A stretch of 64,000 nucleotides of DNA from an uncultured Alphaproteobacteria bacterium (GTDB taxonomy: Bacteria > Pseudomonadota > Alphaproteobacteria > RF32 > CAG-239), in the NCBI GenBank assembly GCA_944393695.1, contig CALYAY010000002.1:112892-176891 (forward strand), given 5' to 3'. The notes beneath the pieces were generated by a model. That model was not told the origin of the DNA. It was given only the letters and a program-made list of their open reading frames with translations, and ran no database searches. The position numbers were made by a program, and so were the translations under genes. Within the stretch, counting starts at the first letter, position 1. The number at the start of each line of letters is the position of its first letter. Shown one piece after another: positions 1 to 21,875 of the stretch.

Positions 1-6047
<6,047 letters not shown>

Positions 6048-6089
6048 GTATTCAATCCTTCTTGGTTATAATTCTGCGGCAATTCTGTC

Positions 6090-6116
6090 AGAAAAAACTG
6101 CACCCCGCCCGCAGAA
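6090..6116 (-). terminator. Hairpin plus T-run immediately upstream of rpoB; rplL-rpoB-type attenuator or intrinsic terminator
   Basis: The minus strand reads ctgcgggcggggtgcag followed by tttttt (the plus strand shows aaaaaa ctgcaccccgcccgcag). It lies about 50 nt upstream of the rpoB start, matching the classic partial terminator between rplL and rpoB. Confidence 0.4.
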
Positions 6117-6406
6117 GGTTAAAAAATCTAGATTTAAAAAGCAAAAATCACACCAAACCCTCGAACTTTTGTTCTCTTGATGTCGATTCGCAGAATAATA
6201 CCTTTAAAAGTCGCTTTTTTATACTCCGGTCGGACTCGGATTGCAAGCAATTTTTCACAAAATGAGTCAAGAATTTTATTCTCTTTTTTAACAACCGGCC
6301 AGAGCAGGAGTCATTTTCCGATTCTCCCTCACCAAACCGCATTTATCCGGAATTGCAAAAAAAATTAACCATCCAAACAAGGCTTATTCCCCTTGCTCAT
6401 CATCCG

Positions 6407-6760
6407 TCACAAATTACCCCAAAAGCGCCAATACAGCATATTTCCGGCCAGATAAATCGTCGGCAACGCCAACACCAGCCAATAATTTTTATTTCTCCGC
6501 AATCGCATCCGTATACCAACTGCCAGCGGAACCAAAAACAAAACAACATTTATCATTGAACGCAACACATACATCTCCCGTGTACGATAAAACAAACCGC
6601 CCCAATCTCCGCCCCAATGCTCAAAATTGCAATACATACTGTAAGCATCTTCAATCCACAAACAGACCCAAAACAAATTCCACAAAACAAAAATCAACAA
6701 AATCTTGTTTCCCAGCACAAAACGCCAAAATGCATCATATTCCTCTGAGTTATCAGCCAT
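6407..6760 (-). CDS. Hypothetical small membrane protein (tandem paralog A, about 3 TM helices)
   Basis: 117-aa ORF MADNSEEYDAFWRFVLGNK...LALPTIYLAGNMLYWRFWGNL. It shares YDAFWRFVL, W.LFWV and the C-terminal LALP.(I/V)YLAGNMLYWRFWGNL with the adjacent ORF. Confidence 0.5.
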   Translation of the reverse strand: MADNSEEYDAFWRFVLGNKILLIFVLWNLFWVCLWIEDAYSMYCNFEHWGGDWGGLFYRTREMYVLRSMINVVLFLVPLAVGIRMRLRRNKNYWLVLALPTIYLAGNMLYWRFWGNL

Positions 6761-6781
6761 ACCGTTCTCCCCCGCCTAACG

Positions 6782-7126
6782 TCACAAATTGCCCCAAAAC
6801 CGCCAATACAGCATATTTCCGGCCAGATAAACCATCGGCAACGCCAACACCAATTTATAAAAACGTATCTTCCGCCACCACATAATTACTCCCGCGACCA
6901 ACGGCACCACCAGAAACAAACCACTTTGACAAACACAACCGGCATATGCGTCAAGGCTTACATAACATTCTCCGTTACCTTCCCAATATTCAAAGTTAGA
7001 ATAAGTTTCATAAACACTGTAACCAAGCAGCCACACCCAAAATAAATCCCATAGCAAAAAGAACAGCGCCGCCTTGTTATTCAGCACAAAACGCCAAAAT
7101 GCATCATACCCCTCTTCCTCGTTCAT
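6782..7126 (-). CDS. Hypothetical small membrane protein (tandem paralog B)
   Basis: Start placed at the internal ATG (MNEEEGYDAFWRFVLNNK...). The C-terminus LALPMVYLAGNMLYWRFWGNL is near-identical to paralog A. The track ORF extends to 7300 from an upstream alternative start. Confidence 0.5.
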   Translation of the reverse strand: MNEEEGYDAFWRFVLNNKAALFFLLWDLFWVWLLGYSVYETYSNFEYWEGNGECYVSLDAYAGCVCQSGLFLVVPLVAGVIMWWRKIRFYKLVLALPMVYLAGNMLYWRFWGNL

Positions 7127-7308
7127 CTCTCCCCTCACAGTCTTAAATAAAATATAATTTCCGGCCCCGACCAAACGCTCATCTCCCGATGATAGCCTCA
7201 TTTCTAACATAAATATTCCGCAATGTCCCCTACTTTTTTGTCCCGACATCTTTTTTTCAAAAAAACCGGCAATCACACATTGCCGGTTTTTACAAAACAT
7301 CTCTCAAC

Positions 7309-7860
7309 TCAAACATTCAGCTCTTTCTTACAATAATTCAGCGCCTCCGCAATCGTCTCCCCATCCGGAAACTGATGCAAAACCCGCTCGCTCCGGTCAC
7401 TCAGAGACAGCTCTTTCAAACACCGCGGCTTAAGCTGCCCGCGCTTCTCACTGTATTGAAACTCCAGAACAAACCAGACTTTTTCTCCCTTCATTTTCAA
7501 AGGCAGCAAAAGCTTGTCCGTTTTCTCAAAATGAAAAGCATCTTTCCGACAGGAAACAATCTCACATTCCCCGACAAGGTTCCCGTAATAAAAATCTCCC
7601 CGCCGTACCGCATAGAAACACCCCAGAAACTCACCGTCTCCCAAACTGCTGACATTATAAAGTCGCACCTCGGTCGACACCAGATGAACCGGGCTCCTCG
7701 TCTCCATGGCAATGGCTATTCCTAAACCCTCTATCAAATCTGCCGGATGAATCACCGGCTGTTCCATCCTGAGAAGAACCTGACACATTCCCTCTTCATT
7801 CAGAACTTTTTCTTTTTTTCGCCGTCTTAAAGCCAAAACAATTTTTCTTAACCAATTCAT
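7309..7860 (-). CDS. Hypothetical protein (183 aa), no recognisable family
   Basis: Clean ORF co-directional with rplL and rpoB, with N-terminus MNWLRKIVLALRRRKKEK. It lies in the inserted segment between rplL and the rpoB attenuator. Confidence 0.45.
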   Translation of the reverse strand: MNWLRKIVLALRRRKKEKVLNEEGMCQVLLRMEQPVIHPADLIEGLGIAIAMETRSPVHLVSTEVRLYNVSSLGDGEFLGCFYAVRRGDFYYGNLVGECEIVSCRKDAFHFEKTDKLLLPLKMKGEKVWFVLEFQYSEKRGQLKPRCLKELSLSDRSERVLHQFPDGETIAEALNYCKKELNV

Positions 7861-8124
7861 AAAAATAAATTTTAATAAAACAAAATAATTCTCTTTCTAG
7901 ACAAAAATTATAACGTCATTCCGAAAAAGTCAAGCTTCTTCCTTCCAGACACAAAAAAAATCCGGACTACCCCAACAATCCGGATAATTTCTCAAAACAA
8001 TAACAAAAACAAATAATGTTACCGTTCAAACCATAAAAAACGGCCAAAGCCTCTCCCCACAGGGATACCGTACTTTGACCGTTCTTAATTTTATTGAGCA
8101 ACAAGCTCAAGAATTGAAGTCAGA

Positions 8125-10803: not shown

Positions 10804-11310
10804 TTAATCTTTTTTCATTTTGTCCTTATTTTTCGGCAAATCGGAAGTACAATGCGGACACTTAACCGCCTCCGCCGCAATTTCCAAACAACAATACGGA
10901 CAAATCTTGGTCTTGGGCGCCGCCTTGGCCGCGTCTGCCGCCTCTTTCTTGTCTATTTTGGCTTGCAGGTTGTTAATCGCCTTAATCAGAATAAACACGG
11001 CAAACGCCACGATAACAAAGCTGATAAGCGCATTGACAAACAAACCGTAATTCAGCGTAACCGCACCGGCCGTCTGCGCCGCCGCCAAAGAATCATACGG
11101 CCCGGCCTTACCGCCTTCTTTCAATATCAGATACAAATTTGAAAAATCAACCTTCCCCAAAATCAGCCCGATAGGCGGCATGATAATATCCTTAACCAGT
11201 GAATCCACAATCTTGCCGAATGCTGCTCCGATGATAATACCGACCGCCATATCGATAACATTGCCCCGCATGGCAAATTTTTTAAATTCATTGATAAAAC
11301 TCTTCAACAT
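10804..11310 (-). CDS. mscL: Large-conductance mechanosensitive channel with a C-terminal zinc-ribbon extension
   Basis: From the internal ATG: [49 protein letters not shown]...., the MscL N-terminus, TM1 and TM2. The C-terminus ends ...[34 protein letters not shown] (Cx2C-X11-Cx2C) instead of the usual helical bundle. Confidence 0.8.
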
Positions 11311-11410
11311 ACTGCTTACCTTTCCCTGAAAAAACAAAATTACGCTGCCCTGAAAGCATATAAACATTTATCAAAAAAAGGAACTGTTTTTTTAAACAGT
11401 CCCCCTTAAC

Positions 11411-12046
11411 TTAAACCTCCGGCAACTTCCAAACCGGCCGCGCCAGATAGCGCATATGCTTGGTACAACTGCCGGTAAAAAAGCTCTTTCCCGACCGGAA
11501 ACTAAACATAAACACCAGACACGCCCCGTTCAGCTCTTCTTCTGCCCAATACCACATACCGTCAACCAACGGCTGTCCGCCGAGTTTCTCCAGCAGCGAA
11601 TTAAGCTGTATCAGCCCTTCTTTTCCGTATTGCCGGGCAAGAATTTCCCAAAAATGAAACAAACTTCCCTGCGAACAAGCCTTTTGGTCAATCTCAATCT
11701 GTGCACACGCCTGAATGGCACTGTCCCGGTTCATGGCATCTGGCAAATCTCTCAGCGTCAGCAGATATCCGCACACCACAACCCCCAACGGCCGCACTTC
11801 GGATAAAATCTCCGTTGAACGCCGCAGGTCTTCGTACAATACCTCAAAATCGAATTGCCTGGAACACTCCTCTTCCGTCCGCACTTCCCGGGGAACAAAT
11901 GTACCGCCGAAAGCCTGGGCCAAACTGTCGATATCAATGTTTAATCCGGACATAACATTCATAACTGTCCGTAAAGCCTCAATTTTTTCCATAATTATCA
12001 AATTAATAATGAATATTCCGAATAACCAAAGCACATTCTCAGCCAA
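11411..12046 (-). CDS. Hypothetical protein (211 aa)
   Basis: ORF between nusG and mscL, co-directional with both. No family recognised. An alternative internal start gives MEKIEALRTVMNV... Confidence 0.45.
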   Translation of the reverse strand: MAENVLWLFGIFIINLIIMEKIEALRTVMNVMSGLNIDIDSLAQAFGGTFVPREVRTEEECSRQFDFEVLYEDLRRSTEILSEVRPLGVVVCGYLLTLRDLPDAMNRDSAIQACAQIEIDQKACSQGSLFHFWEILARQYGKEGLIQLNSLLEKLGGQPLVDGMWYWAEEELNGACLVFMFSFRSGKSFFTGSCTKHMRYLARPVWKLPEV

Positions 12047-12102: not shown

Positions 12103-12636
12103 TTACTTGATTTTCTCAACCTGGCTGAATTCCAGCTCAACCGGCGTCGAACGACCGAAAATCGAAACCGAAACTTTCAGCCGCATTTTCTCGGTATCCA
12201 CTTCTTCCACATAGCCGACAAACGAAGCAAACGGCCCGTCCGAAACGCGGATCTGCTCGCCCACTTCAAAATCAACCGCCGTCCGCGGACGCTCAACACC
12301 TTCCGTCATCTGTTTGATAATCCGCTCGGCTTCGGCATTGCTGATCGGCTGCGGCTTGTTGCGGCTTCCCAGAAAACCGCTCACCCGCGGCGTATTCCGG
12401 ATAACATGCCAGCATTCATCCGACATAATCATCTTCACCAGCACATATCCCGGAAAAAATTTTCTCTCACTGTTGACACGGGCACCTTTTTTCATTTCCA
12501 CCACCTCTTCGGTCGGCACCATAACCTCAAGGATTTTATCTTCCATTTTTTTCAGAACGGCCTGTTCCCTGATAGATTCGGCCACTTTCTTTTCCGAACC
12601 GGAATAAACGTTCACAACATACCAACGGGCTTCCAT
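12103..12636 (-). CDS. nusG: Transcription termination/antitermination factor NusG
   Basis: [25 protein letters not shown]... with the C-terminal KOW segment ...[25 protein letters not shown]. It lies downstream of secE. Confidence 0.92.
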
Positions 12637-12641
12637 AAGAC

Positions 12642-12839
12642 CTAAACTCCAACATCTAAAATTAATTTAACAATCCAGCCGATAATCTGATCAACAAAAA
12701 AGAAAAACGTCGCGGCAATCGCCACCAGAATAATCACCATGATTGAAGTCTGCACAACTTCCTTTCTTGTCGGCCAGGTAACTTTTTTAACTTCCTGTTT
12801 AACCTGCCTGAAAAACTGTATCGGACTAACTTTTGCCAT
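12642..12839 (-). CDS. secE: Preprotein translocase subunit SecE
   Basis: 65 aa: [58 protein letters not shown] single TM helix, positioned directly before nusG. Confidence 0.85.
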
Positions 12840-13102
12840 GAATCTACCCTAAAACAAACCAAAAACACACCGATGCATCCTTTCGGCACAACCGCACCCC
12901 ATAAGTCCGATGCATCTCGGCTCAATGCCGCTAACATATGAAATTATTTCTCATCTGTCAATAAAATATTCGCTGTTTATTCAAATAATCCCGGACCTTT
13001 CCGCCCCTCCGCAAAAATTCTGCAAAAAAATATTTACAATCGCCAAAAGCAAGATATAATGCAGGCGATATTAAATTATTATTCACCTTAAATATTATTT
13101 TT

Positions 13103-13507
13103 ATGAAACAACAAATTGAAGAACTTCTGCCGGAGATTAAAAATATTTGTCCCGCAGAATGTGATGTAACGATTGTTCCCGCAAAGTATCTGAAATCCCG
13201 CCGTCTCATCATCATCAGGTTTCCCGAAAAGGACATTAACCTTGACAGTTGGGCCGCCGCACAGGTTTACCCTCTTCGGAAAAAGGTAAATGCCGTGCTT
13301 GAAGAACCAAAAAAATTCAGGGAAATCTATTGCAGCGGCAACAAATTTGTTTTTTATTCTCCGTTCATACTGCACGTCCTGAAAAAATTCCAAGGTCACT
13401 TAGACTACAAAACGCGCAGCAGCCACGGATGGCACCAATACATCGGAGAATGCCAGAACATTGACGAGCTGATAACCTTCCTCTCGGAAGAAACTCTCAT
13501 GTACTAA
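13103..13507 (+). CDS. Hypothetical protein (134 aa)
   Basis: Clean ORF MKQQIEELLPEIKNICPAECDVTIVPAKYLK... followed by a hairpin terminator. The minus-strand ORFs overlapping it (12958..13236, 13088..13399) are judged spurious. Confidence 0.45.
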   Translation: MKQQIEELLPEIKNICPAECDVTIVPAKYLKSRRLIIIRFPEKDINLDSWAAAQVYPLRKKVNAVLEEPKKFREIYCSGNKFVFYSPFILHVLKKFQGHLDYKTRSSHGWHQYIGECQNIDELITFLSEETLMY

Positions 13508-13512
13508 GTCTC

Positions 13513-13568
13513 ATTCCTCTCCCGCCTCAAGCTCTGCAAGCCTGACTGCCGGAGAGGAATATTTTTTA
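13513..13568 (+). terminator. Putative intrinsic terminator after the 13103..13507 gene
   Basis: attcctctcc ... ggagaggaat (10-bp stem with a long loop) followed by tttttt. Confidence 0.3.
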
Positions 13569-13863
13569 TTCCTCAAAAAAACCTTGTCTCCAAGATACAA
13601 ATTAATATAATACACTTTTCTCAAAAAGAACTCGGTGTCTGCCCGGAAATAACCATTCACTCCGTTTCCGCACCTTCATCCAATTCTTTCCCTTGAAACA
13701 CCTTGTTTCAAGAGTTTTCTTTTTAACCGGCATATTGACTATGATACCCCCTGAAAAACAAAAGCCCCCTGCCCTGCAGCTCTGTCATAATTCAAATAAA
13801 CTTCAAATCTGACCTATGACTTTATCTTGACTGGCAGAAACACATAGTGCAATCCACAAATCA

Positions 13864-14199
13864 TTAAACATTTCCCAACACAAAAATTAAAACAAACTGC
13901 CATACAAAAAACAAAATAATATATAATGTAGCAATCAACAAAATTTTCAACCATATTTTTAGATTGTGCATCTTTTTGATAAAATACATAAACAAATAGG
14001 TAAAAATAAAACTTATAATGGCGGCATCCATACATAGCTTATAATACACATCACCTGTTGTATTTAACAACGCTACAATTTCAGCATCCCCGATATAATT
14101 CAAATATGCAAAAAATCCTCTTACAAAGCTTAAAGGTATGACTGTAAGCAACAGTATAAAAATGACAATATGTTTTGCTTGTGTTAAAATTTTTTGCAT
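13864..14199 (-). CDS. Hypothetical membrane protein (111 aa, 3-4 TM helices)
   Basis: Hydrophobic ORF MQKILTQAKHIVIFILLLTVIPLSF... in the AT-rich island. Confidence 0.4.
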   Translation of the reverse strand: MQKILTQAKHIVIFILLLTVIPLSFVRGFFAYLNYIGDAEIVALLNTTGDVYYKLCMDAAIISFIFTYLFMYFIKKMHNLKIWLKILLIATLYIILFFVWQFVLIFVLGNV

Positions 14200-14223
14200 G
14201 TTATATATATTCTTTTCAAAATT

Positions 14224-14604
14224 CTATCGTTTATTTTGTAATTTTAAATATTCATCACACATATTTTGTAGCATATAATTTTGTGAAAATCCATCAGAAT
14301 TAACAGCCTCATAATAATCCTGCTCACTCCATGACGAAACATTTTTTCGTGATGGAGAGTTAGGACGATTATATTCATTCATAACAATATCTTCATTCTC
14401 ATTCAAAGAATTCAAACTTTCAATACCCAAAAAAAAGCCGTACTGCCAATAAAGCAATACGGCGAACAAAATTTAAGAAAATTTTCAATACAGAATAAAA
14501 CCGCAAAAAGAACACTCAATATATCCTGGACGGATCAGATGAGCAATTCTACCACAACGCGGACAAACAATAAGAAAATAGCCCTGTTTTTTCTTAGACA
14601 ACAT
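14224..14604 (-). pseudogene. Zinc-ribbon ORF (39 aa, CPRCG...CSFCG) in frame with the downstream 81-aa ORF but separated by a TGA; candidate disrupted gene, or two small genes
   Basis: ATG at 14604 gives MLSKKKQGYFLIVCPRCGRIAHLIRPGYIECSFCGFILY, then TGA at 14485-14487. The same frame continues KIFLN-LFAVLLYWQYGFFLGIESLN... (track ORF 14224..14469 starting at TTG). Confidence 0.3.
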
Positions 14605-14769
14605 AATTTCAAATAATTTAAGTGATACAATAATTTTATTTAATATTCATATAATTAACATACTTTTAATAAAAAACGAGAAATATTTTTGTCAAAAACT
14701 TAGTTGTTCACGCAAGTAGAAAGCTTGAAGCTTTCGTAGCGGCACAAACAACCTCTTTTATGGCGCCTC

Positions 14770-14844
14770 ACACGGACTCGGTTAACTTATTGATTTATAA
14801 AGAAAAAAGACGCTTTTCAGCGTCTTCATCTTGATTGGCAGGGG
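14770..14844 (-). repeat. Direct repeat copy B: duplicate of the tRNA-Trp 3' end (9 nt), its terminator hairpin and about 40 nt of flank (att-like)
   Basis: ...cacacggactcggttaacttattgatttat..aaaaaagacgcttttcagcgtcttcatcttgattggcagggg matches 17600..17676, with an A/T indel and a g/t change. Confidence 0.6.
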
Positions 14845-14864
14845 ATATAGGATAATATACGGAC
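14836..14864. repeat. 29-nt cassette-junction repeat, copy 1 (tggcaggggatataggataatatacggac)
   Basis: It recurs at 16683..16711 with 2 mismatches. It begins with the tRNA-Trp 3' fragment tggcagggg. Confidence 0.5.
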
Positions 14865-14925
14865 TTTTATTATTCCATTTATCTGAAGAATATGCTATTA
14901 TGCGTAAAAATTTGAAGGAATCAAT

Positions 14926-15459
14926 ATGACAAAATTTTATCACTATATTACCAAAGGAAATACAGCTCTAACTGAGGGGATATTGTCGTTTGCAAAAAAT
15001 CCTAATGCTGATTTAGGGTATTACTACAAGCGTACCGGCGGCGAAACAACGCATGCCGGAATTGTCAACTGGATGGAAAATTGTTTTGAAGGGCGCAGCC
15101 GTGCAATCAGAGGTTTTTCCGAACCCATTCAATGGACTGAAAAAAGCATCAATATGTTCAAACCTTTTATTGAGAACGCGGACTTGTTCTCTATTGATTT
15201 AGATGCTCTACAAAAAGACGGATTAATTGAAGCCGTTTATGTTTCACCTGCTCTCCGTCCCAATTTAGATAATGAATTACCGCAAGATTGCGATGAAAAA
15301 TTAGTCAAACTAAATTCTATTGCCAACATAGACACTTCACCGGTTGATTGGTCCGTATGTGATGAAAAATTAGGCTTAAGGTTTTCGGTCGTGCCTTACT
15401 ACTTAATCGTCATCAAGGGCGGCATCATCCCTCCCCGCTACATTCATAAAGAAAATTAA
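14926..15459 (+). CDS. Hypothetical protein (177 aa)
   Basis: ORF MTKFYHYITKGNTALTEGILSF... in the island, preceded by an AAGGAA RBS. No family recognised. Confidence 0.45.
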   Translation: MTKFYHYITKGNTALTEGILSFAKNPNADLGYYYKRTGGETTHAGIVNWMENCFEGRSRAIRGFSEPIQWTEKSINMFKPFIENADLFSIDLDALQKDGLIEAVYVSPALRPNLDNELPQDCDEKLVKLNSIANIDTSPVDWSVCDEKLGLRFSVVPYYLIVIKGGIIPPRYIHKEN

Positions 15460-15519
15460 TACAAAAATTTTATTTACATTTTTCAACATCTCCCTATAAT
15501 CGCAAAAAATTTAATTACA

Positions 15520-15825
15520 TTGTCTAACAATTATTTTGTACTAAGCTTTATGAAAACAAATTTATCTATCTGTAGCATAACAGTTGATTTTATTGATTGT
15601 GAGAGGAATAGCGTTATAAAAGCTATTGAAGATATGGTAGAAATATCTAAGCTGACCAATCCCAGCTGCAGCAAAGTTTGTGCCACATTAAAAGGCGTTT
15701 ACGTATCGGTAAACAGCCAAAGCGACATTGCGGAAACCTACAAAAAATGGGACAAAGACTGGCACGAAATGATGATAAAAAAAGAAAAGTGTTCTAAGGA
15801 AAAAACTCCTATTAGAGGCTGTTGA
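15520..15825 (+). CDS. Hypothetical protein (101 aa)
   Basis: ORF followed by a strong intrinsic terminator. Confidence 0.4.
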   Translation: MSNNYFVLSFMKTNLSICSITVDFIDCERNSVIKAIEDMVEISKLTNPSCSKVCATLKGVYVSVNSQSDIAETYKKWDKDWHEMMIKKEKCSKEKTPIRGC

Positions 15826-15843
15826 ACACTTTTACCTCAACCG

Positions 15844-15875
15844 AACCGCTTTTTCACAAGCGGTTTTTTTATTTT
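15844..15875 (+). terminator. Intrinsic terminator
   Basis: aaccgctt ttttcac aagcggtt followed by tttttttatttt. Confidence 0.5.
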
Positions 15876-16002
15876 CATACAAACTTTCCACCACAACGCC
15901 GCATTTTTTGACGATTTTGTCTAAAACGAGCTTTACACCACATTTATTCTATGATATACAAAAAGCACAGTTAACAATATTAATTAATTAAATTTATCTA
16001 TT

Positions 16003-16281
16003 ATGAAACTTAACATTCAAGGCTTAGACAAAGCTGAAGTTTTTAAAGCTCTCTACGACAACGCCTCCCCGCAAGGCTTAGGCATCCTCCATTTTATTCC
16101 AGGAAATCTAGGCATAGAAGAAGCCCGTAAGGCTGTGAAAGAACAAACCCGTTTTGACTACTACCGCGGACGGGTAATGAAAGTTGACATCAGCGGGGAT
16201 GAGCTTGAAACTTGGCTCTATGACCGCGATAACGGCGAAGGTGCTGCAGAACGTGCGCTCAGCTCTCTACGAGCAAAATAA
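16003..16281 (+). CDS. Hypothetical protein (92 aa)
   Basis: ORF MKLNIQGLDKAEVFKALYDNASPQGLGILHFIPGNLGIEEARKAVKEQ... A hairpin plus T-run follows at about 16300-16340. Confidence 0.4.
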   Translation: MKLNIQGLDKAEVFKALYDNASPQGLGILHFIPGNLGIEEARKAVKEQTRFDYYRGRVMKVDISGDELETWLYDRDNGEGAAERALSSLRAK

Positions 16282-16355
16282 AAGAGTTTATAAAAAAATT
16301 ACACCCCAAGACAACCAACGTCTCAGGGTGTTTTTTTTGCCAATACATCAGCTTG

Positions 16356-16571
16356 CTAATCCAACAACTTCATTTCATTTAAGATGAATGCCGCAACAGC
16401 GCAAAGCAAACACCAAACCAATATCAATCCGCCGGTACTATTATGCGCGATTTCATTTCCATAATGGTCATACGACACACCATATTTTTTATCCAAACGG
16501 TTATCAATAACCAGCCCGACTATAGCCACAACGACCAAGCCGACACCTGCAATACAAAAAAAAGCAAACAT
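16356..16571 (-). CDS. Hypothetical small membrane protein (71 aa, 2 TM helices)
   Basis: MFAFFCIAGVGLVVVAIVGLVIDNRLDKKYGVSYDHYGNEIAHNSTGGLILVWCLLCAVAAFILNEMKLLD. It converges on the preceding gene. Confidence 0.35.
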   Translation of the reverse strand: MFAFFCIAGVGLVVVAIVGLVIDNRLDKKYGVSYDHYGNEIAHNSTGGLILVWCLLCAVAAFILNEMKLLD

Positions 16572-16682
16572 AACGTAAAATTTTTAAATAATATTCATAT
16601 TTTTAATTAAAGTACGCCAAAGATAAAACCAACCACAATTTTTGTCAATAAAAAAACCGCCCTTCCAGACAGTTCTTTTTAT

Positions 16683-16711
16683 TGGTAGGGGATATAGGAT
16701 AATATACAGAC
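16683..16711. repeat. 29-nt cassette-junction repeat, copy 2 (tggtaggggatataggataatatacagac)
   Basis: Matches 14836..14864. Like copy 1, it lies upstream of a plus-strand ORF. Confidence 0.5.
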
Positions 16712-16888
16712 TATTTTTATTACGATACTCGCCCCTAAAACAAGAAATTTCAATAAAATGAAACTATACCTAACATTCAAATATCTTAACAAATATTTTT
16801 GATTATACTTAATTTTTGACTTCCACTAAAAATATGTTACATTAAATCTACTATTTGGGATTTAGTATTTTATCTCAAGGAAGAATGA

Positions 16889-17410
16889 ATGAAAAATTTT
16901 TTAGAAAAACTAAATACAAAACATGTTCTTTTGATTTCAGTATACATACTTTCCATATTTCTATATGTTTACATTTTTGGAACAGAAGCAACATTTTTTA
17001 GTATATTCATCAACCCTTTTTTCTTTTTCGGAATTCCCTACTTAATTTTAAATCATTTACGCTATAAAGAGCTAAAAAGGACATATAAAAGCTATCCCAT
17101 AAATTTATTTATTGAAGTATATAAAAAGGCACCAGATTTTTCTTATGGAAAAGAAGTTATCTACTCTCACAATTTTCTTGAAACAACTTTCTATGACCAA
17201 GAAACCATAAATCAATTAAAACCTCTAGCTAAAAATATGCTATCAATCTACAATGAATCTTTTTTTTCTGATGAAGAATTAGCTGAGGCTCAAAACTCAT
17301 TAGAAAACTTTATTACGCAAAAATATCTTAATAAATTTAAATCATTAGACTTTATTTCTGCAACAATTTTAGCCATATATTTTCAATTAATATTCTGGCA
17401 AATCGTATAA
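16889..17410 (+). CDS. Hypothetical membrane protein (173 aa)
   Basis: MKNFLEKLNTKHVLLISVYILSIFLYVYIFG... Very AT-rich codon usage. No family recognised. Confidence 0.4.
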   Translation: MKNFLEKLNTKHVLLISVYILSIFLYVYIFGTEATFFSIFINPFFFFGIPYLILNHLRYKELKRTYKSYPINLFIEVYKKAPDFSYGKEVIYSHNFLETTFYDQETINQLKPLAKNMLSIYNESFFSDEELAEAQNSLENFITQKYLNKFKSLDFISATILAIYFQLIFWQIV

Positions 17411-17599
17411 ATAAATTTATTTATAATCTATACTGAATAAAACTTATATTCTAAATTCTTAGCTAATTTAATAAAAATAAAAAAACTAATAAACCGTCCT
17501 AACTTTGGCTAGTTTATAATCACATTAACTACTTGTAAATCAAAGAATTTTGTTTTGTATAATTGTGTAACAAACGGATATCGACCTCAATGGATACAC

Positions 17600-17676
17600 G
17601 CACACAGGCTCAATTAACTTATTGATTTATTATAAAAAAAGACGCTTTTCAGCGTCTTCATCTTGAGTGGCAGGGG
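17600..17676 (-). repeat. Direct repeat copy A (native tRNA-Trp 3' end plus its terminator and flank)
   Basis: Counterpart of 14770..14844. It includes the terminator hairpin gacgcttttcagcgtc plus an A7 run, which reads as U7 on the tRNA strand. Confidence 0.6.
17634..17667 (-). terminator. Intrinsic terminator of tRNA-Trp
   Basis: The minus strand reads ctcaagatgaag gacgctgaaaagcgtc ttttttt immediately after the tRNA 3' CCA. Confidence 0.6.
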
Positions 17677-17743
17677 CAGAAGGATTCGAACCCTCGACAC
17701 TCGGTTTTGGAGACCGATGCTCTACCAACTGAGCTATACCCCT
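17668..17743 (-). tRNA. trnW: tRNA-Trp (anticodon CCA)
   Basis: The minus strand reads AGGGGTATAGCTCAGTTGGTAGAGCATCGGTCTCCAAAACCGAGTGTCGAGGGTTCGAATCCTTCTGCCCCTGCCA. It is 76 nt with a cloverleaf, anticodon loop CTCCAAA, T-loop GGTTCGAATCC and an encoded CCA. Confidence 0.9.
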
Positions 17744-17897: not shown

Positions 17898-20321
17898 TTA
17901 CTCTTTGGTCTGAATCCGCATGGCATAGAACGAACGCCAAACGAAAATCAAAGCCAAAGCCATAAAGACGGCTCCCAGCGTCAGCGAAACGCAACGCGGC
18001 GCCGACACGGCAATTTCCACCGCCAGCAACCCGAACAAAGTCGTAAACTTAATAATCGGGTTAAGCGCCACGGAAGAAGTATCCTTATACGGATCACCCA
18101 CAGTATCGCCGACCACGGCCGCCGCATGCAGATCCGTTCCTTTTTCGCCCAGATCAACTTCGACAACCTTTTTGGCATTATCCCATGCCCCACCGGCATT
18201 CGCCATATACAGCGCCTGGAACAAACCGAAAACGGCAATTGAAATCAGATAACTGGCAAACAAATTCGGATCAAAGCAGGCAAACGCCAGTGTAAACGAG
18301 AAAATGGCCACAAAGATGTTCAGCATGCCTTTCTGGGCATATACCGTACAAATACGCACCACTTCCTTGCTGTCCTCCACCGAAGCCGCTTTTTTGGTAT
18401 TCAGCTTGATGTGTTTTTTAATAAAATCGACCGCACGGTAAGCACCGGTTGAAACCGCCTGCATCGAAGCACCGGAGAACCAGTAGATAACCGCACCGCC
18501 CAGAATAATGCCGAACAGCACTTCCGGATCAAGCAACGACAACTTCAGGTTCAACAGCAGGATAATCGAAAAGATCATCGTTGCCGCACCGATAACCGCC
18601 GTACCGATAAGCACCGGCTTGGCCGTTGCCTTAAAGGTATTTCCGGCACCGTCATTGGCTTCCAGAAAATGTTTGCCGCTTTCAAAATCAGGCTTAAAGC
18701 CGAAATCTTTTTCAATTTCTTTGTTAATACCCCGCATATTTTCAATCTGCGACAATTCAAACACCGACTGGGCGTTATCCGCCACCGGCCCGTAACTGTC
18801 AACGGCAATATTAACCGGCCCCATGCCCAACATACCGAAGGCCACCAGGCCAAAAGCAAAAATACTGGGATAGACCATATAGGCATCCAGACCCGAACGC
18901 GATGTGGCATAAGCCACCGCCATCAGGGCCACCATAACGACACCCTGCCAGAAAGCCGAGAAGTTTCCGGAAACAATACCCGAAATAATATTCAGCGAAG
19001 CCCCGGCCTCACGACTGGAGGAAACAATTTCCTGAACATGCTTTGACTTCGGCGAGGTAAAGATTTTGGTAAATTCCGGAATCAACGCCGCAGCCAAAGT
19101 ACCACAGGAAATAATAACCGAAAGCTTCCACCACAAATCCGGCCCCATATCGCCGATCATCACATACGAAACACCGAAGGTAACCAAAATCGAAATAATC
19201 GAAGTCAGCCAGATAAGGTGTGTCAACGGCTTTTCAAAATCAAAAGTTTTCTTGTTGCCGTAAAGGAGTTTGGAAAACCAGCCGTTAAGCGCATAAGAAA
19301 GCATGGAAGTAATAATCATCAGCACGCGCATGGCAAAAATCCACACAATCAAACGTGCCTGAATATCAATTCCGCCGCTCATCAAAGCCAGCTCGCCGTT
19401 TTGATTATACATCATTCCGGCACCCAGAACAATAAAGCTGATAAGCGCCACACCCGTCACGCCATAGGTTTCAAAACCATCGGCAGTCGGCCCCACGGAG
19501 TCACCGGCATTATCACCGGTACAATCGGCAATCACACCCGGATTGCGGGCATCGTCTTCATCAATTTTAAAAATAATCTTCATCAAATCGGCACCGATAT
19601 CGGCAATCTTGGTAAAGATACCGCCGCAAATACGCAGCGCCGCGGCACCCAGCGATTCTCCGATGGCAAATCCCACAAAGCAGGCACCGGCACTTTCCTT
19701 AGGAACATACAGCAGAATGATAATCATCATGATGAGTTCAACACAGATTAACAAAACGCCAATTGACATTCCCGAACGCAGCGGCAGGCTCATAACCGGA
19801 TAAGCCTTACCCTGCAGCGACAAAAAGGCCGTGCGGGAATTGGCATAAGTGTTAATTCTCATACCGAACCAGGCCACCGTATAAGACCCCAGAATACCCA
19901 AAACCGACCACATCAGAATTGTCAGCACTTTAGGCATCGGCGTATTGTTCAGATAATAGAAATAATAAAAAATACAGGCCGCAATAAACAATTCCAAAAC
20001 CAGCAGCAGTTTCGACTGTTGCTTCATATAAGTTTTGCAGGTTTCATAAATGGTATTGGACACATTAAGCATTGCCTTATGAGCCGGAATTCTTTTAATC
20101 TTAAAAAATTCATACAGCCCGAAAAGCATCCCCAAGATACAAATTCCGATACCATAAGCCAAAATCTGACTTCCGGTCACAGCATAACCGAAAATATTAT
20201 ACCCGACATCCAGGCTCGGAACATTAAGATCAATTTCTGAAGCATGAGCTTTAGAAAGACCGGCTGCCAAAACCATAACCATGGCCGCGGCAAAAGAACC
20301 GATTCTTTTTAGTGCAGACAT
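17898..20321 (-). CDS. hppA: Membrane-bound proton/sodium-translocating pyrophosphatase
   Basis: 807 aa and polytopic. It carries the signature motifs GDNAGD, DNAGG... and ...VGDTVGDPYKDTSSVALNPIIK. Confidence 0.9.
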   Translation of the reverse strand: MSALKRIGSFAAAMVMVLAAGLSKAHASEIDLNVPSLDVGYNIFGYAVTGSQILAYGIGICILGMLFGLYEFFKIKRIPAHKAMLNVSNTIYETCKTYMKQQSKLLLVLELFIAACIFYYFYYLNNTPMPKVLTILMWSVLGILGSYTVAWFGMRINTYANSRTAFLSLQGKAYPVMSLPLRSGMSIGVLLICVELIMMIIILLYVPKESAGACFVGFAIGESLGAAALRICGGIFTKIADIGADLMKIIFKIDEDDARNPGVIADCTGDNAGDSVGPTADGFETYGVTGVALISFIVLGAGMMYNQNGELALMSGGIDIQARLIVWIFAMRVLMIITSMLSYALNGWFSKLLYGNKKTFDFEKPLTHLIWLTSIISILVTFGVSYVMIGDMGPDLWWKLSVIISCGTLAAALIPEFTKIFTSPKSKHVQEIVSSSREAGASLNIISGIVSGNFSAFWQGVVMVALMAVAYATSRSGLDAYMVYPSIFAFGLVAFGMLGMGPVNIAVDSYGPVADNAQSVFELSQIENMRGINKEIEKDFGFKPDFESGKHFLEANDGAGNTFKATAKPVLIGTAVIGAATMIFSIILLLNLKLSLLDPEVLFGIILGGAVIYWFSGASMQAVSTGAYRAVDFIKKHIKLNTKKAASVEDSKEVVRICTVYAQKGMLNIFVAIFSFTLAFACFDPNLFASYLISIAVFGLFQALYMANAGGAWDNAKKVVEVDLGEKGTDLHAAAVVGDTVGDPYKDTSSVALNPIIKFTTLFGLLAVEIAVSAPRCVSLTLGAVFMALALIFVWRSFYAMRIQTKE

Positions 20322-20557
20322 CTTACTTTCCTTTTATTGGTTAAAACAAAATTTCAATAAAACAAAATCACGCCCTTTGGGTGATTCTTTTTTATATGCG
20401 CTCATGATAGATTCCTGAGTCTAAATTTTGTGTTAACGCTTTAAAATGATTCAATAAATCGACCTTCGTCCATATAAAAAAATATTGCAAAGACCTCTTG
20501 ACAAAATTTGTCCATCATGCTATTTTGCCCCACGAACTGTTATAATTATAATATATT

Positions 20558-21160
20558 ATGAAAACAATAATAGAAGACATCTGTGATATTATCTCAACGA
20601 TAATGCCGGATGAGGAAGAAATCAAAATCTACAAACAGCGTTGCGACAACATATTCTTTGCGGATATGCTGCTGGATATTCTGGTCTCAAACCTGATATT
20701 CAAGCTGTTTGTTGTACGAAATGCCTCAACTGACGAAGAATATAATGCACCTTCCTCAGTTGCGTTTTTGACCAAACTCAAACAAGTTTTCAATAACGAG
20801 GAACTCAACAAAGAATGGCTGACTTTTTCCAGACTTCATATTGAGTATGTCCTGACTTGGGAAGATCTGAATCCCAGCGTAAGAAAATTCTTGGAATTTG
20901 AGTTTGAGTATGAACACAAAGACATTTTTTCCGAAACCGAAATATGGGAACAGGGAGACAACGAAGAACTCATCTTTGATTATCTCACCCACCTGACCGA
21001 AAAACCGGAAAGGCTCAAAACCGAAGAACAATCCCTCCGCATCCTGTTGGAAGGCATTGTAATTCTCCATCCCCATATTTTGGTAGAAGAAAGATTTCAG
21101 GAACTGATTGGTGATAATATGAAAGAGCTCCAATCCGTTCTTGCTCTGGAAAACTTTTAG
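20558..21160 (+). CDS. Hypothetical acidic protein (200 aa)
   Basis: Clean ORF MKTIIEDICDIISTIMPDEEEIKIYKQRCDN... No family recognised. Confidence 0.45.
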   Translation: MKTIIEDICDIISTIMPDEEEIKIYKQRCDNIFFADMLLDILVSNLIFKLFVVRNASTDEEYNAPSSVAFLTKLKQVFNNEELNKEWLTFSRLHIEYVLTWEDLNPSVRKFLEFEFEYEHKDIFSETEIWEQGDNEELIFDYLTHLTEKPERLKTEEQSLRILLEGIVILHPHILVEERFQELIGDNMKELQSVLALENF

Positions 21161-21173
21161 AAAAAGGCCCGGG

Positions 21174-21875
21174 TCAACCCTCGGCCTTTTCTTTTTTACA
21201 TTTTTCAAATTGCTCTGTCCGGCTCAAAAACAAAGCCGCTTCATCCGCCCGGGCACAAATCCGCTCATAAGCCGGCCGATTCCCTTGCCGACGGTAAATA
21301 TCCTCCAACACATCACATATTCCCAAAATATCACGATACTTATCCTCCGCACCGACAGCCTCATCCGGCACATACTCCAAAGCCTTTTCCAACAGATAAA
21401 CCTTAAAATCTTCATCTTTTGCCTTAACCGCCAAATTACGATAAGCCCGGCTTTTTACCTGATTGTCAAAATAGCTGCCAGCCTCTTCCCGATAATGAAA
21501 AAAAGCTGGCTCTCTGCTGCCCAAATCATAAAGCGCTTTGATTTTTTCCGCCAACACGGCTTTTTCTTTTTTATCCGTCCCTGCCAGCATGGCTTTTTGA
21601 TAAAATTCTGCGGCCCGGGTGTAATAAAGCGGATAAAAATCCTTTTCCGAAGAATTTTCGTTCTTTTCTTCATACATCTCAGCCAAAAACAAATAAGCCT
21701 GATACGGAAAACGGCTTTTACATCTTTTCTTCCCGGAAAAATCACTCATAAACACCGCCAGCTCTTGCATGGCATGACTTTTTCTCAACATCGGATAATG
21801 TTTGCCTGCAGTCAGACCGGACTTTGGAACCAAATGCTGCTTTCTTTCCATAACAACAACTCCTCGTATTTTCAT
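21174..21875 (-). CDS. Hypothetical protein (233 aa; true start may be the internal MERKQHLV...)
   Basis: ORF convergent with the previous gene. Helical composition. No family recognised. Confidence 0.45.
   Translation of the reverse strand: MKIRGVVVMERKQHLVPKSGLTAGKHYPMLRKSHAMQELAVFMSDFSGKKRCKSRFPYQAYLFLAEMYEEKNENSSEKDFYPLYYTRAAEFYQKAMLAGTDKKEKAVLAEKIKALYDLGSREPAFFHYREEAGSYFDNQVKSRAYRNLAVKAKDEDFKVYLLEKALEYVPDEAVGAEDKYRDILGICDVLEDIYRRQGNRPAYERICARADEAALFLSRTEQFEKCKKEKAEG

Follow-up and report, generated by a model that had tools for sequence, protein, structure and literature searches.

The 64-kb stretch of uncultured alphaproteobacterial DNA analysed here at its full length (contig CALYAY010000002.1; hereafter the window) carries an AT-rich array of small gene cassettes between an intact tRNA-Trp gene and secE, beginning at the first base past the tRNA. 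The first-pass annotation had taken this interval for the decayed outcome of repeated site-specific integration at the tRNA-Trp 3' end, or else for an array of orphan immunity-type genes. We compared it with fetched loci and contigs numbered L001 to L144. As first described, the interval is AT-rich: the 4.7 kb from tRNA-Trp to the secE promoter have 34% GC overall, falling to 24-33% at 13600-14800 and 16400-17600, while the flanks have about 47%. It is also dense in terminators, with 15 terminator-like sites in a terminator scan versus 4.1 expected.

Units of the tRNA-Trp array

Read in the sense of the tRNA, the proximal half of the array runs from the tRNA and its core through left arm Y1, an open reading frame (ORF) of 173 aa, a right arm-core and a terminator to ORFs of 71, 92, 91 and 177 aa. 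The distal half continues with a second right arm-core, left arm Y2, a Zn-ribbon ORF with its terminator, ORFs of 53, 111 and 134 aa, and the secE promoter and secE. The features are as follows.

17668-17743, minus strand: tRNA-Trp(CCA), intact (ARAGORN; Rfam tRNA 69.5 bits); its last 9 nt, 17668-17676, are core copy O1 (TGGCAGGGG on the plus strand, CCCCTGCCA in the tRNA sense)
17518-17667, minus strand: left arm Y1 of cassette A, made up of CTCAAGAT, a hairpin (17638-17659), a T-run and about 110 nt of conserved non-coding flank
16889-17410, plus strand: cargo of cassette A, a 173-aa ORF with transmembrane (TM)-like segments (ORF list)
16683-16721, minus strand: right arm P of cassette A (AGTCTGTATATTATCCTATAT) and core copy O2 (CCCCTACCA)
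16643-16682, minus strand: terminator of an X-type left arm (ATAAAAAGAACTGTCTGGAAGGGCGGTTTTTTTATTGAC), 84% identical over 37 nt to the X unit of L009 (see below)
14875-16642, genes on both strands: cargo of cassette B (ORF list, terminator scan)
16356-16571, minus strand: 71-aa membrane ORF of cassette B
16301-16331, minus strand: terminator in cassette B
16003-16281, plus strand: 92-aa ORF of cassette B
15843-15866, plus strand: terminator in cassette B
15550-15825, plus strand: 91-aa ORF of cassette B
14926-15459, plus strand: 177-aa ORF of cassette B
14836-14874, minus strand: right arm P of cassette B (AGTCCGTATATTATCCTATAT) and core copy O3 (CCCCTGCCA)
14700-14835, minus strand: left arm Y2 of the Zn-ribbon cassette, made up of ATCAAGAT, a terminator (14806-14827) and conserved flank including GAGTCCGTGTGAGG
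14437-14604, minus strand: cargo of the Zn-ribbon cassette, a 39-aa CPRC..CSFC ORF (14485-14604) and a terminator (14437-14463)
14406-14425, no strand: scar of a lost junction, placed by alignment breakpoints at window 14425/14416 and 14406/14484
12993-14405, genes on both strands: distal block, with a 53-aa ORF (14224-14385, minus), a 111-aa membrane ORF (13864-14199, minus) and a 134-aa ORF (13103-13507, plus) that has a promoter-like site at 13033-13060 (promoter scan)
12840-12992, minus strand: secE promoter TTGACA-17-TATGTT (12961-12933) and leader (promoter scan, conservation)
12642-12839, minus strand: secE, the core gene bounding the array (ORF list; PF00584 recorded on the identical/conspecific gene)

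The array is punctuated by direct repeats of the tRNA 3' end, three in the window (17668-17676, 16683-16691 and 14836-14844), which is far more than chance would give. The pair already described, a repeat of about 75 bp at 14770-14844 and 17600-17676, is real: a repeat search aligned 14769-14853 with 17601-17685 at 86% identity over 85 nt, and blastn gave 89.5% over 76 nt. Within it lies a 38-nt perfect block (terminator, TCAAGAT and TGGCAGGGG) with two copies in the 64-kb window and none in 100 shuffles. The third copy, TGGTAGGGG at 16683-16691, was new to the present analysis. A 21-nt plus-strand motif, ATATAGGATAATATAC[A/G]GACT, follows the copies at 16683-16691 and 14836-14844 (two matches, none expected).

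These repeats define units of constant anatomy. In the tRNA sense, a unit consists of a left arm, a cargo of 1-4 small genes, a right arm and the core, a 9-nt CCCCTGCCA identical to the tRNA 3' end including CCA. The right arm has the consensus (T/A)AGTCCGT-N2-ATT(G/A)(T/C)C(T/C)T-N4 in the tRNA sense; its least diverged copy, GGATTGTCTTACTG followed by CCCCTGCCA, mimics the T-loop, T-stem and acceptor end of the tRNA (GAATCTTACTG followed by CCCCTGCCA). The left arm starts with [A/C/G]TCAAGA(T/C), passes into a hairpin and a T-run, and continues as CTTTATAAATCAA..TTAA..GAGTCCGTGTGAGG. Because the hairpin varies in sequence, keeps its pairing and is followed by a T-run, it is best understood as a terminator and not as a protein-binding site. 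Both arms are common to units with unrelated cargo, across species.

Cassettes A and B each retain a left arm, a right arm and the core, and hold no recombinase. The Zn-ribbon gene belongs to a further unit: a right arm-core (P-O) junction lies straight after its terminator in L138, L139 and L007, and therefore the gene forms a cassette of its own whose junction the window has lost. At the position of the scar, L138, L139, L140, L142 and L144 have other sequence (0.6-2.8 kb), a P-O junction or both. With three intact junctions and one lost, the window contains at least four units. A candidate for a decayed terminal junction, AGGTCCGGGATTATTTGAAT at about 12971-12990, was rejected, as it aligns with the A/T-rich stretch that precedes the conserved secE promoter where the site is occupied in other genomes.

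We collected 56 candidate right-arm/core junctions from about 50 loci, including a few from non-gut contigs that are probably chance matches to the pattern. In every case where a flanking tRNA or secE was placeable, the junctions are downstream of tRNA-Trp and in its orientation, and in the window and all loci placeable relative to the tRNA they are confined to the interval from tRNA-Trp to the next core gene; the repeat is not a dispersed element. They also follow the tRNA where secE is elsewhere (L121, L134), so that the array tracks the tRNA end rather than secE. In L121 (4141-5815) secE-nusG is inverted and lies upstream of tRNA-Trp, the array still being 3' of the tRNA; in L134 (1112-4424) a large serine recombinase gene (69% identical) and the same right arm-core are followed by LptF/Gmk/YicC genes and not by secE. 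The right-arm/core pattern had no match in a scan of viral contigs, and hence there is no evidence for a phage origin.

Empty sites and differences between close relatives

A scan with NusG, one genome per species, yielded about 35 loci of uncultured gut Alphaproteobacteria whose NusG is 77-92% identical to that of the window. In ten of these relatives the site is empty, with tRNA-Trp followed after about 45 nt by the secE start and no terminator between them; in twelve others the gap measures 0.65-7.5 kb. The earlier statement that tRNA-Trp normally sits directly upstream of secE thus holds for the clade, and the relatives do not share the 4.8 kb of the window. One detail has to be reversed. 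The repeat copy beside the tRNA had been called native, but since empty-site genomes have no terminator there, the terminator next to the window tRNA is the left arm of an inserted unit, and both copies of the repeat are left arms of cassettes. A metagenome scan with the right-arm/core pattern added 47 loci, mostly from human gut, again between tRNA-Trp and secE, where arrays reach more than 12 kb. Over other relatives the gap thus spans 0 to more than 12 kb.

Single units of the window can be recognised in other genomes. Left arm Y1, which is absent from empty-site genomes, is 78-84% identical to the tRNA-adjacent flank of L003, L016, L026 and L005. The ORF of cassette A shares 94% of its amino acids with that of an L003 cassette (90% nucleotide identity over 812 nt, 17460-16654). 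Window 15434-14831 is common to L002 (77% over 608 nt), and window 14673-14416 to L007 (83%).

In near-identical DNA, the units come and go at the core. Against a background of 96-97% identity, L128 differs from L110 by an additional 12.4 kb, which enters precisely at the tRNA 3' end and has TCTTACTGCCCCTGCCA on its flanks; on a similar background (96-97%) it differs from L085 by an additional recombinase-less cassette of 2.9 kb, the overlap at the core being 18 nt. The core repeat at fresh insertions in relatives is 17-18 nt long.

The same is seen within the species, for which we used ten contigs (L135-L144) whose NusG is identical to that of the window. Their arrays all differ, and no two are alike. 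L136 lacks window 14845-17667, its tRNA joining straight to left arm Y2 and on through window 14844-12637 at 98.9% identity. L141 matches the window (98.6% over 5051 nt) and has in addition a 1.07-kb cassette with its own right arm adjoining the tRNA, and L144 has an additional 2.8 kb after the Zn-ribbon terminator, at the 14416-14484 boundary. The cargo of cassette A is present in some conspecific strains and absent in others; its right arm/O2 junction is also found in L141, L142 and L144. The distal block, 12993-14406, is in contrast present in all ten contigs, at 97-99% identity in nine and at 85-92% in L137, which misses about 150 nt of it. Because all ten have it, this distal 1.4 kb is the old, fixed end: the array is young and variable beside the tRNA, and old and fixed beside secE.

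Taken together, the empty sites, the junction repeats and the core breakpoints in near-identical and conspecific DNA bear out successive site-specific integrations at the tRNA-Trp 3' end, and neither of the two findings that the first-pass annotation named as refuting it (the 4.8 kb shared by relatives, a dispersed repeat) was made. The decay proposed along with them is uneven, the distal block having been kept in all ten conspecifics and the tRNA-proximal part being young and variable.

A large serine recombinase and the growth of the array

As first described, the island has no recombinase. Neither domain searches nor tblastn with large serine recombinases (LSRs) at E <= 50 found a trace of one in the window array, the tblastn hits being noise. 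Among ten window ORFs of 200-430 aa none is a recombinase (eight belong to housekeeping or unrelated families and two have no match), and none was found among the large ORFs of the first twelve arrays. The ORFs of the metagenome-scan arrays, however, include a 530-aa LSR with Resolvase (PF00239, 8e-17), Recombinase (PF07508, 1.8e-13) and Zn_ribbon_recom (PF13408, 1.7e-4) domains and, as read from its sequence, the catalytic-serine motif ARVSSKRQ. It is intact in L085, L115, L086, L033, L128-L133 and the conspecific L138 and L143, where it sits at the tRNA-Trp locus and is 95-96% identical to the L085 copy; C-terminal remnants occur in eight further arrays, and none in the window. A probable cognate recombinase can thus be named, present at this locus in L138, L143 and relatives.

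The LSR gene always points the same way as the tRNA and is found one or two genes ahead of the right arm. The elements that carry it are 9 to more than 13 kb long, have the same two arms and, in the loci examined, sit at a junction of the tRNA-Trp type. L128 has the complete layout: tRNA-Trp and a left arm are followed, further along, by a small resolvase, a 163-aa gene, the LSR, a 304-aa gene and a right arm-core, and these by an RTX-like cassette, a core, a left arm, two small genes, a right arm-core, a left arm, the 177-aa gene, a right arm-core, MerR and secE. The LSR family comprises at least 235 clusters at E <= 1e-30, the few with a source name being labelled Alphaproteobacteria; for about a dozen members the genomic context was inspected, and there the target was the tRNA-Trp 3' end. 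Among curated families CcrB and XisF come nearest to it, though both score far under their cut-offs (65.5 bits against a cut-off of 900 for the NCBIfam CcrB model); the structurally solved LSRs of TP901-1 and A118 are remote relatives only.

This LSR is likely the enzyme of the array. Another candidate would be an unlinked chromosomal tyrosine recombinase, Xer-like or integron-like, that acts on the core and for which the LSR is merely cargo. The window array does lack a recombinase, the dyad symmetry expected of an LSR site is weak, and tRNA 3' ends are classical targets of tyrosine integrases (PMC5704250). No tyrosine recombinase was found, however, in about 36 large array ORFs (Pfam), in the Pfam annotations of the fetched array loci or in the ten window ORFs of 200-430 aa, and the LSR is the sole recurring recombinase, always in the same position and orientation. 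We regard a tyrosine recombinase as quite improbable.

We consider it probable that LSR-driven accretion at the tRNA-Trp 3' end built window 12993-17667, leaving behind recombinase-less cassettes flanked by attachment (att) sites. In such a scheme, at least four small units would have been stacked at the tRNA-Trp 3' end by site-specific recombination, new ones entering beside the tRNA in the clearest cases and older ones being shifted toward secE. Entry beside the tRNA would thereby account for a tRNA-proximal end that differs in the ten conspecifics and a secE-proximal 1.4 kb present in all. The recombinase genes would then have been deleted, or may never have been present, with the cassettes keeping both arms in the manner of cis-mobilizable elements (CIMEs). 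Their left-arm terminators would insulate the transcription of each cassette. Such cassettes would presumably remain movable: an LSR arriving on a full-length element could shift or delete those of the window.

Several observations weigh against this account. The window has neither an LSR nor a fragment of one, and what assigns the LSR to the att sites is co-location alone. LSR attP and attB sites measure about 40-50 bp, with imperfect dyad symmetry about a 2-bp crossover; here, dyad symmetry across ATCTTRA..CCCCTGCCA..TCAAGAT is partial and weak, at best 40% complementary versus 25% by chance in a scan of 21 junctions. No circular or excised form was observed. Furthermore, canonical LSRs (phiC31, Bxb1, A118) recombine attP with attB only, and the new units sit beside a resident left arm, which is an attL-like site; a relaxed LSR or another route is therefore needed. 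Finally, the joint that distinguishes L136 from the window falls inside the 38-nt perfect repeat, and homologous deletion consequently explains this single 2.8-kb difference equally well.

That joint also favours a view of the gap between tRNA-Trp and secE-nusG as a hotspot of homologous recombination, swapped wholesale after DNA uptake and rearranged by unequal crossing-over between arms of 76-150 nt, with the recombinase serving only rare full-length elements. The arms, 80-95% identical, are long enough for RecA-dependent exchange, the flanks are 97-99% identical among strains, and the window is without an LSR. Such exchange, however, leaves unexplained why a tRNA 3'-end mimic and core close every unit and why the same two arms recur across species around unrelated cargo; in some cases the breakpoint is on a core repeat of 17-18 nt, too short for efficient homologous exchange, and LSR genes and remnants occupy a fixed place relative to the right arm. 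We therefore think homologous exchange unlikely as the main process, and retain LSR-driven accretion as the probable one.

A bolder version of the accretion model, which we offer as tentative and rather doubtful, would make the locus a serine-recombinase counterpart of the integron. Here tRNA-Trp would be the platform, and cassettes of 0.4-3 kb, each with a right-arm/core/left-arm site and a terminator, would be captured, reshuffled and lost singly by one LSR that occasional full-length elements supply in trans and that, unlike canonical LSRs, accepts attL-like sites, the X unit described below multiplying the attachment site.

Cargo, flanking genes and known systems

All nine island ORFs gave no significant match in Pfam, PHROGs, PADLOC or NCBIfam; TM-like segments were found in three island ORFs (111, 71 and 173 aa). 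The Zn-ribbon gene, which had been described as disrupted, turns out to be an intact 39-aa CxxC..CxxC ORF with its own terminator, 92% identical to the L084 copy; it is the L007 copy that has lost its in-frame ATG start, apparently by a frameshift. The 177-aa protein stands out as widespread, with 415 homologue clusters and no Pfam domain, the 120 listed being 78-92% identical. Its ORF occurs in 13 fetched arrays, adjoining a P-O junction, and in several related arrays it occupies the last right-arm-bounded cassette before secE. An N-terminal YHY motif is invariant in this protein. Cargo in the arrays of relatives includes Shedu, AAA_15/21, MmeI-like and type I restriction-modification, Fic, a toxin-antitoxin pair, an autotransporter and APH, and one related element carries DUF5906, possibly a replication module.

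A further reading would make the locus a store of orphan immunity genes or toxin-immunity pairs for interbacterial competition, the repeats being incidental. The ORFs are small and several encode membrane proteins, defence-type genes (Shedu, AAA_15/21, restriction-modification, Fic) do occur in relatives, and Foldseek with the AlphaFold model of the 177-aa protein gives weak matches to the ADP-ribosyltransferase folds of DarT, Tpt1/KptA and pertussis toxin S1. These structural matches are non-significant (E 0.1-0.5) and come from a model of moderate quality (pLDDT 70), and searches of Pfam, PADLOC, NCBIfam and PHROGs assigned none of the window ORFs to an immunity, toxin or defence family. The family searches thus lend no support to the immunity-gene array that had been proposed as an alternative, and we give that reading very slight credence; it concerns, in any case, the function of the cargo and does not compete with accretion as a mechanism.

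The X unit is a recurrent small component of about 190 nt, a terminator plus a tRNA-like element of about 150 nt, that often follows tRNA-Trp or a cassette. It is present in L009 (8861-9235, two tandem copies), in the conspecific L144 (about 3355-3518) and as the remnant at window 16643-16682, from which the tRNA-like body that follows the X-type terminator in relatives is missing; further copies are in L002, L005, L007, L010, L011, L025, L029, L032, L081, L084, L088, L092, L094, L098, L103, L115 and L125. At its start the element has an acceptor 5' strand, AGGGGTAG; inside lies an 8-bp hairpin (GAACTCAC/GTGAGTTC) that is nearly invariant, and its end is formed by the last 19 nt of tRNA-Trp, CCA included. 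Covariation is modest (0.196 versus 0.143 in shuffles, reached in 2/500), one helix having compensatory changes at 4/6 pairs, and G-U pairs are present. Rfam had no match for it, an E-value scan returning noise only, and at the gathering threshold Rfam found only tRNAs in the window and five related loci. Readings of the X unit as a hammerhead, a tmRNA or a small ORF were dropped, since neither the CUGAUGA core nor the ORF is conserved and ARAGORN found no tmRNA. The unit may serve as an additional attachment site or be an RNA that mimics a tRNA.

Three versions of the tRNA-Trp T-stem (window 17680-17696) exist among the relatives L001-L038, namely GAGGG/CCTTC, GTGAG/CTTAC and GTGGG/CCTGC. They do not track NusG similarity, and the X unit beside each tRNA has the matching version, which suggests that the tRNA 3' half evolves in concert or is exchanged.

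The genes around the array are as follows.

17898-20321, minus strand: H+-pyrophosphatase (H+-PPase), upstream of tRNA-Trp (ORF list)
12103-12636, minus strand: nusG, after secE (PF02357 recorded on the identical/conspecific gene)

Downstream of tRNA-Trp and on the same strand, the order is secE, nusG, an orphan ORF, mscL, rplK and rplA. The usually contiguous nusG-rplKA cluster is thus interrupted in the window (10804-12046) by a 211-aa orphan ORF (TTG start; called at 183-193 aa in conspecifics) and an MscL homologue whose C-terminal tail carries CxxC..CxxC; L128 and L129 have MscL in the same place. Just past the H+-PPase gene, an AT-rich stretch (20000-21200, 34-40% GC) holds a 200-aa orphan ORF (20558-21160, plus strand) without a Pfam match, which is kept in conspecifics (for example L136 2310-2912). 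A second strain-variable spot in the same species lies between rplL and rpoB (window about 6050-8000; L135-L144 about 12780-14600), where the ORFs differ among conspecific contigs: 183 aa, then 52/59/65, 114, 117, 172 or 200 aa. One of them (L136) has a weak match to Tlde1_dom, a type VI effector-like domain, and this spot may fit a toxin/immunity idea better than the tRNA-Trp array does.

The promoter and leader region of secE, about 150 nt, is kept in most occupied-site genomes and not in empty-site genomes. A strong secE promoter with the conserved leader (window 12933-12992) is also seen in L002, L003, L005, L007, L009, L025 and L032. The secE start is ATG in most occupied-site genomes; in empty-site genomes it is a GTG about 45 nt after the tRNA, without a promoter. 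Occupied sites seem to come with a rewired secE-nusG transcription unit, and in most occupied-site genomes secE-nusG would have gained a promoter of its own (12961-12933).

The locus is of a known kind, a site-specific accretion island at a tRNA gene, and behaves like CIME/ICE accretion arrays, SCC composite islands and tycheposon islands, each taken up below. It has the 3' position at the tRNA, the direct repeats and the empty site of such islands; an integrase is absent from the island of the window and present in those of L138, L143 and relatives. Likewise, a protein combining Resolvase, Recombinase and zinc-ribbon domains, the mark of an LSR integrative element, is encoded in related and conspecific arrays and not in the window. 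Three things are unusual here: the recombinase is a serine and not a tyrosine enzyme, the cassettes are very small, and every left arm has a built-in terminator. Our literature search for an island between tRNA-Trp and secE found nothing relevant.

Accretion and CIMEs have a precedent in ICESt1/ICESt3 of Streptococcus thermophilus (PMC5704250). There too, integration genes have been lost with attL and attR kept, a conserved gene carries at its 3' end CIMEs in tandem with an incoming element, and arrays grow by accretion and shrink by deletion (PMC5704250). Cassettes A and B fit this definition, as both att sites are kept and integration and transfer genes are absent. Classic CIMEs, however, go with tyrosine integrases and conjugative elements, whereas here the linked enzyme is an LSR, no conjugation genes were seen, and the units are numerous and 0.4-3 kb in size.

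The staphylococcal cassette chromosome (SCC) elements, including SCCmec, composite SCC islands and the Enterococcus cassette chromosome (ccrAB at rlmH/orfX), resemble the array in using LSRs, in targeting the 3' end of a conserved gene that stays intact, in their short direct repeats at junctions and in tandem composites that include recombinase-less pseudo-elements (PMC6222049). Here, by contrast, the target is a tRNA gene and not rlmH, a single LSR replaces the CcrA/CcrB pair, and the host is a Gram-negative gut alphaproteobacterium; with an LSR that is not a Ccr equivalog and tRNA-Trp as its target, the locus is not an SCC element.

The tycheposon islands of Prochlorococcus are described in a preprint as sites of repeated tRNA-proximal integration with partial tRNA copies between units, fragmented integrases, strain heterogeneity that peaks beside the tRNA, adaptive or defence cargo and a minority of LSRs (bioRxiv 10.1101/2020.12.28.424599). 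The likeness, which extends to the polarity of the present array, is one of architecture, drawn against the preprint's text as read. In that text tycheposons mostly have tyrosine recombinases and replication modules, unlike the array, and two-arm mini-cassettes with a built-in terminator do not figure in it (bioRxiv 10.1101/2020.12.28.424599).

Integron arrays and clusters of attC sites lacking integron-integrases (CALINs) share with the array small, mostly single-gene and recombinase-less cassettes, a recurring recombination site and a fixed platform. The locus is nevertheless not an integron, because it has neither IntI nor attC; attI and Pc are also absent, the junction is a varying hairpin with a T-run and not an attC-type imperfect palindrome, and the cassettes come with promoters and terminators of their own and are found in both orientations.

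The locus offers a clean natural series, from the empty site through single cassettes and a full-length element with its recombinase to decayed arrays. As the series comes from one uncultured Alphaproteobacteria species of the human gut, the building of a tRNA island can be followed unit by unit. For annotation, it means that the terminator past tRNA-Trp and the secE promoter seen here are results of element insertion and not ancestral features. The at least 235 LSR clusters (E <= 1e-30) are now linked to candidate attachment-site arms and can be of interest for the discovery of recombinase tools. If the LSR does act on attL-like junctions and, in trans, on recombinase-less cassettes, this would extend the abilities that LSRs are presumed to have.

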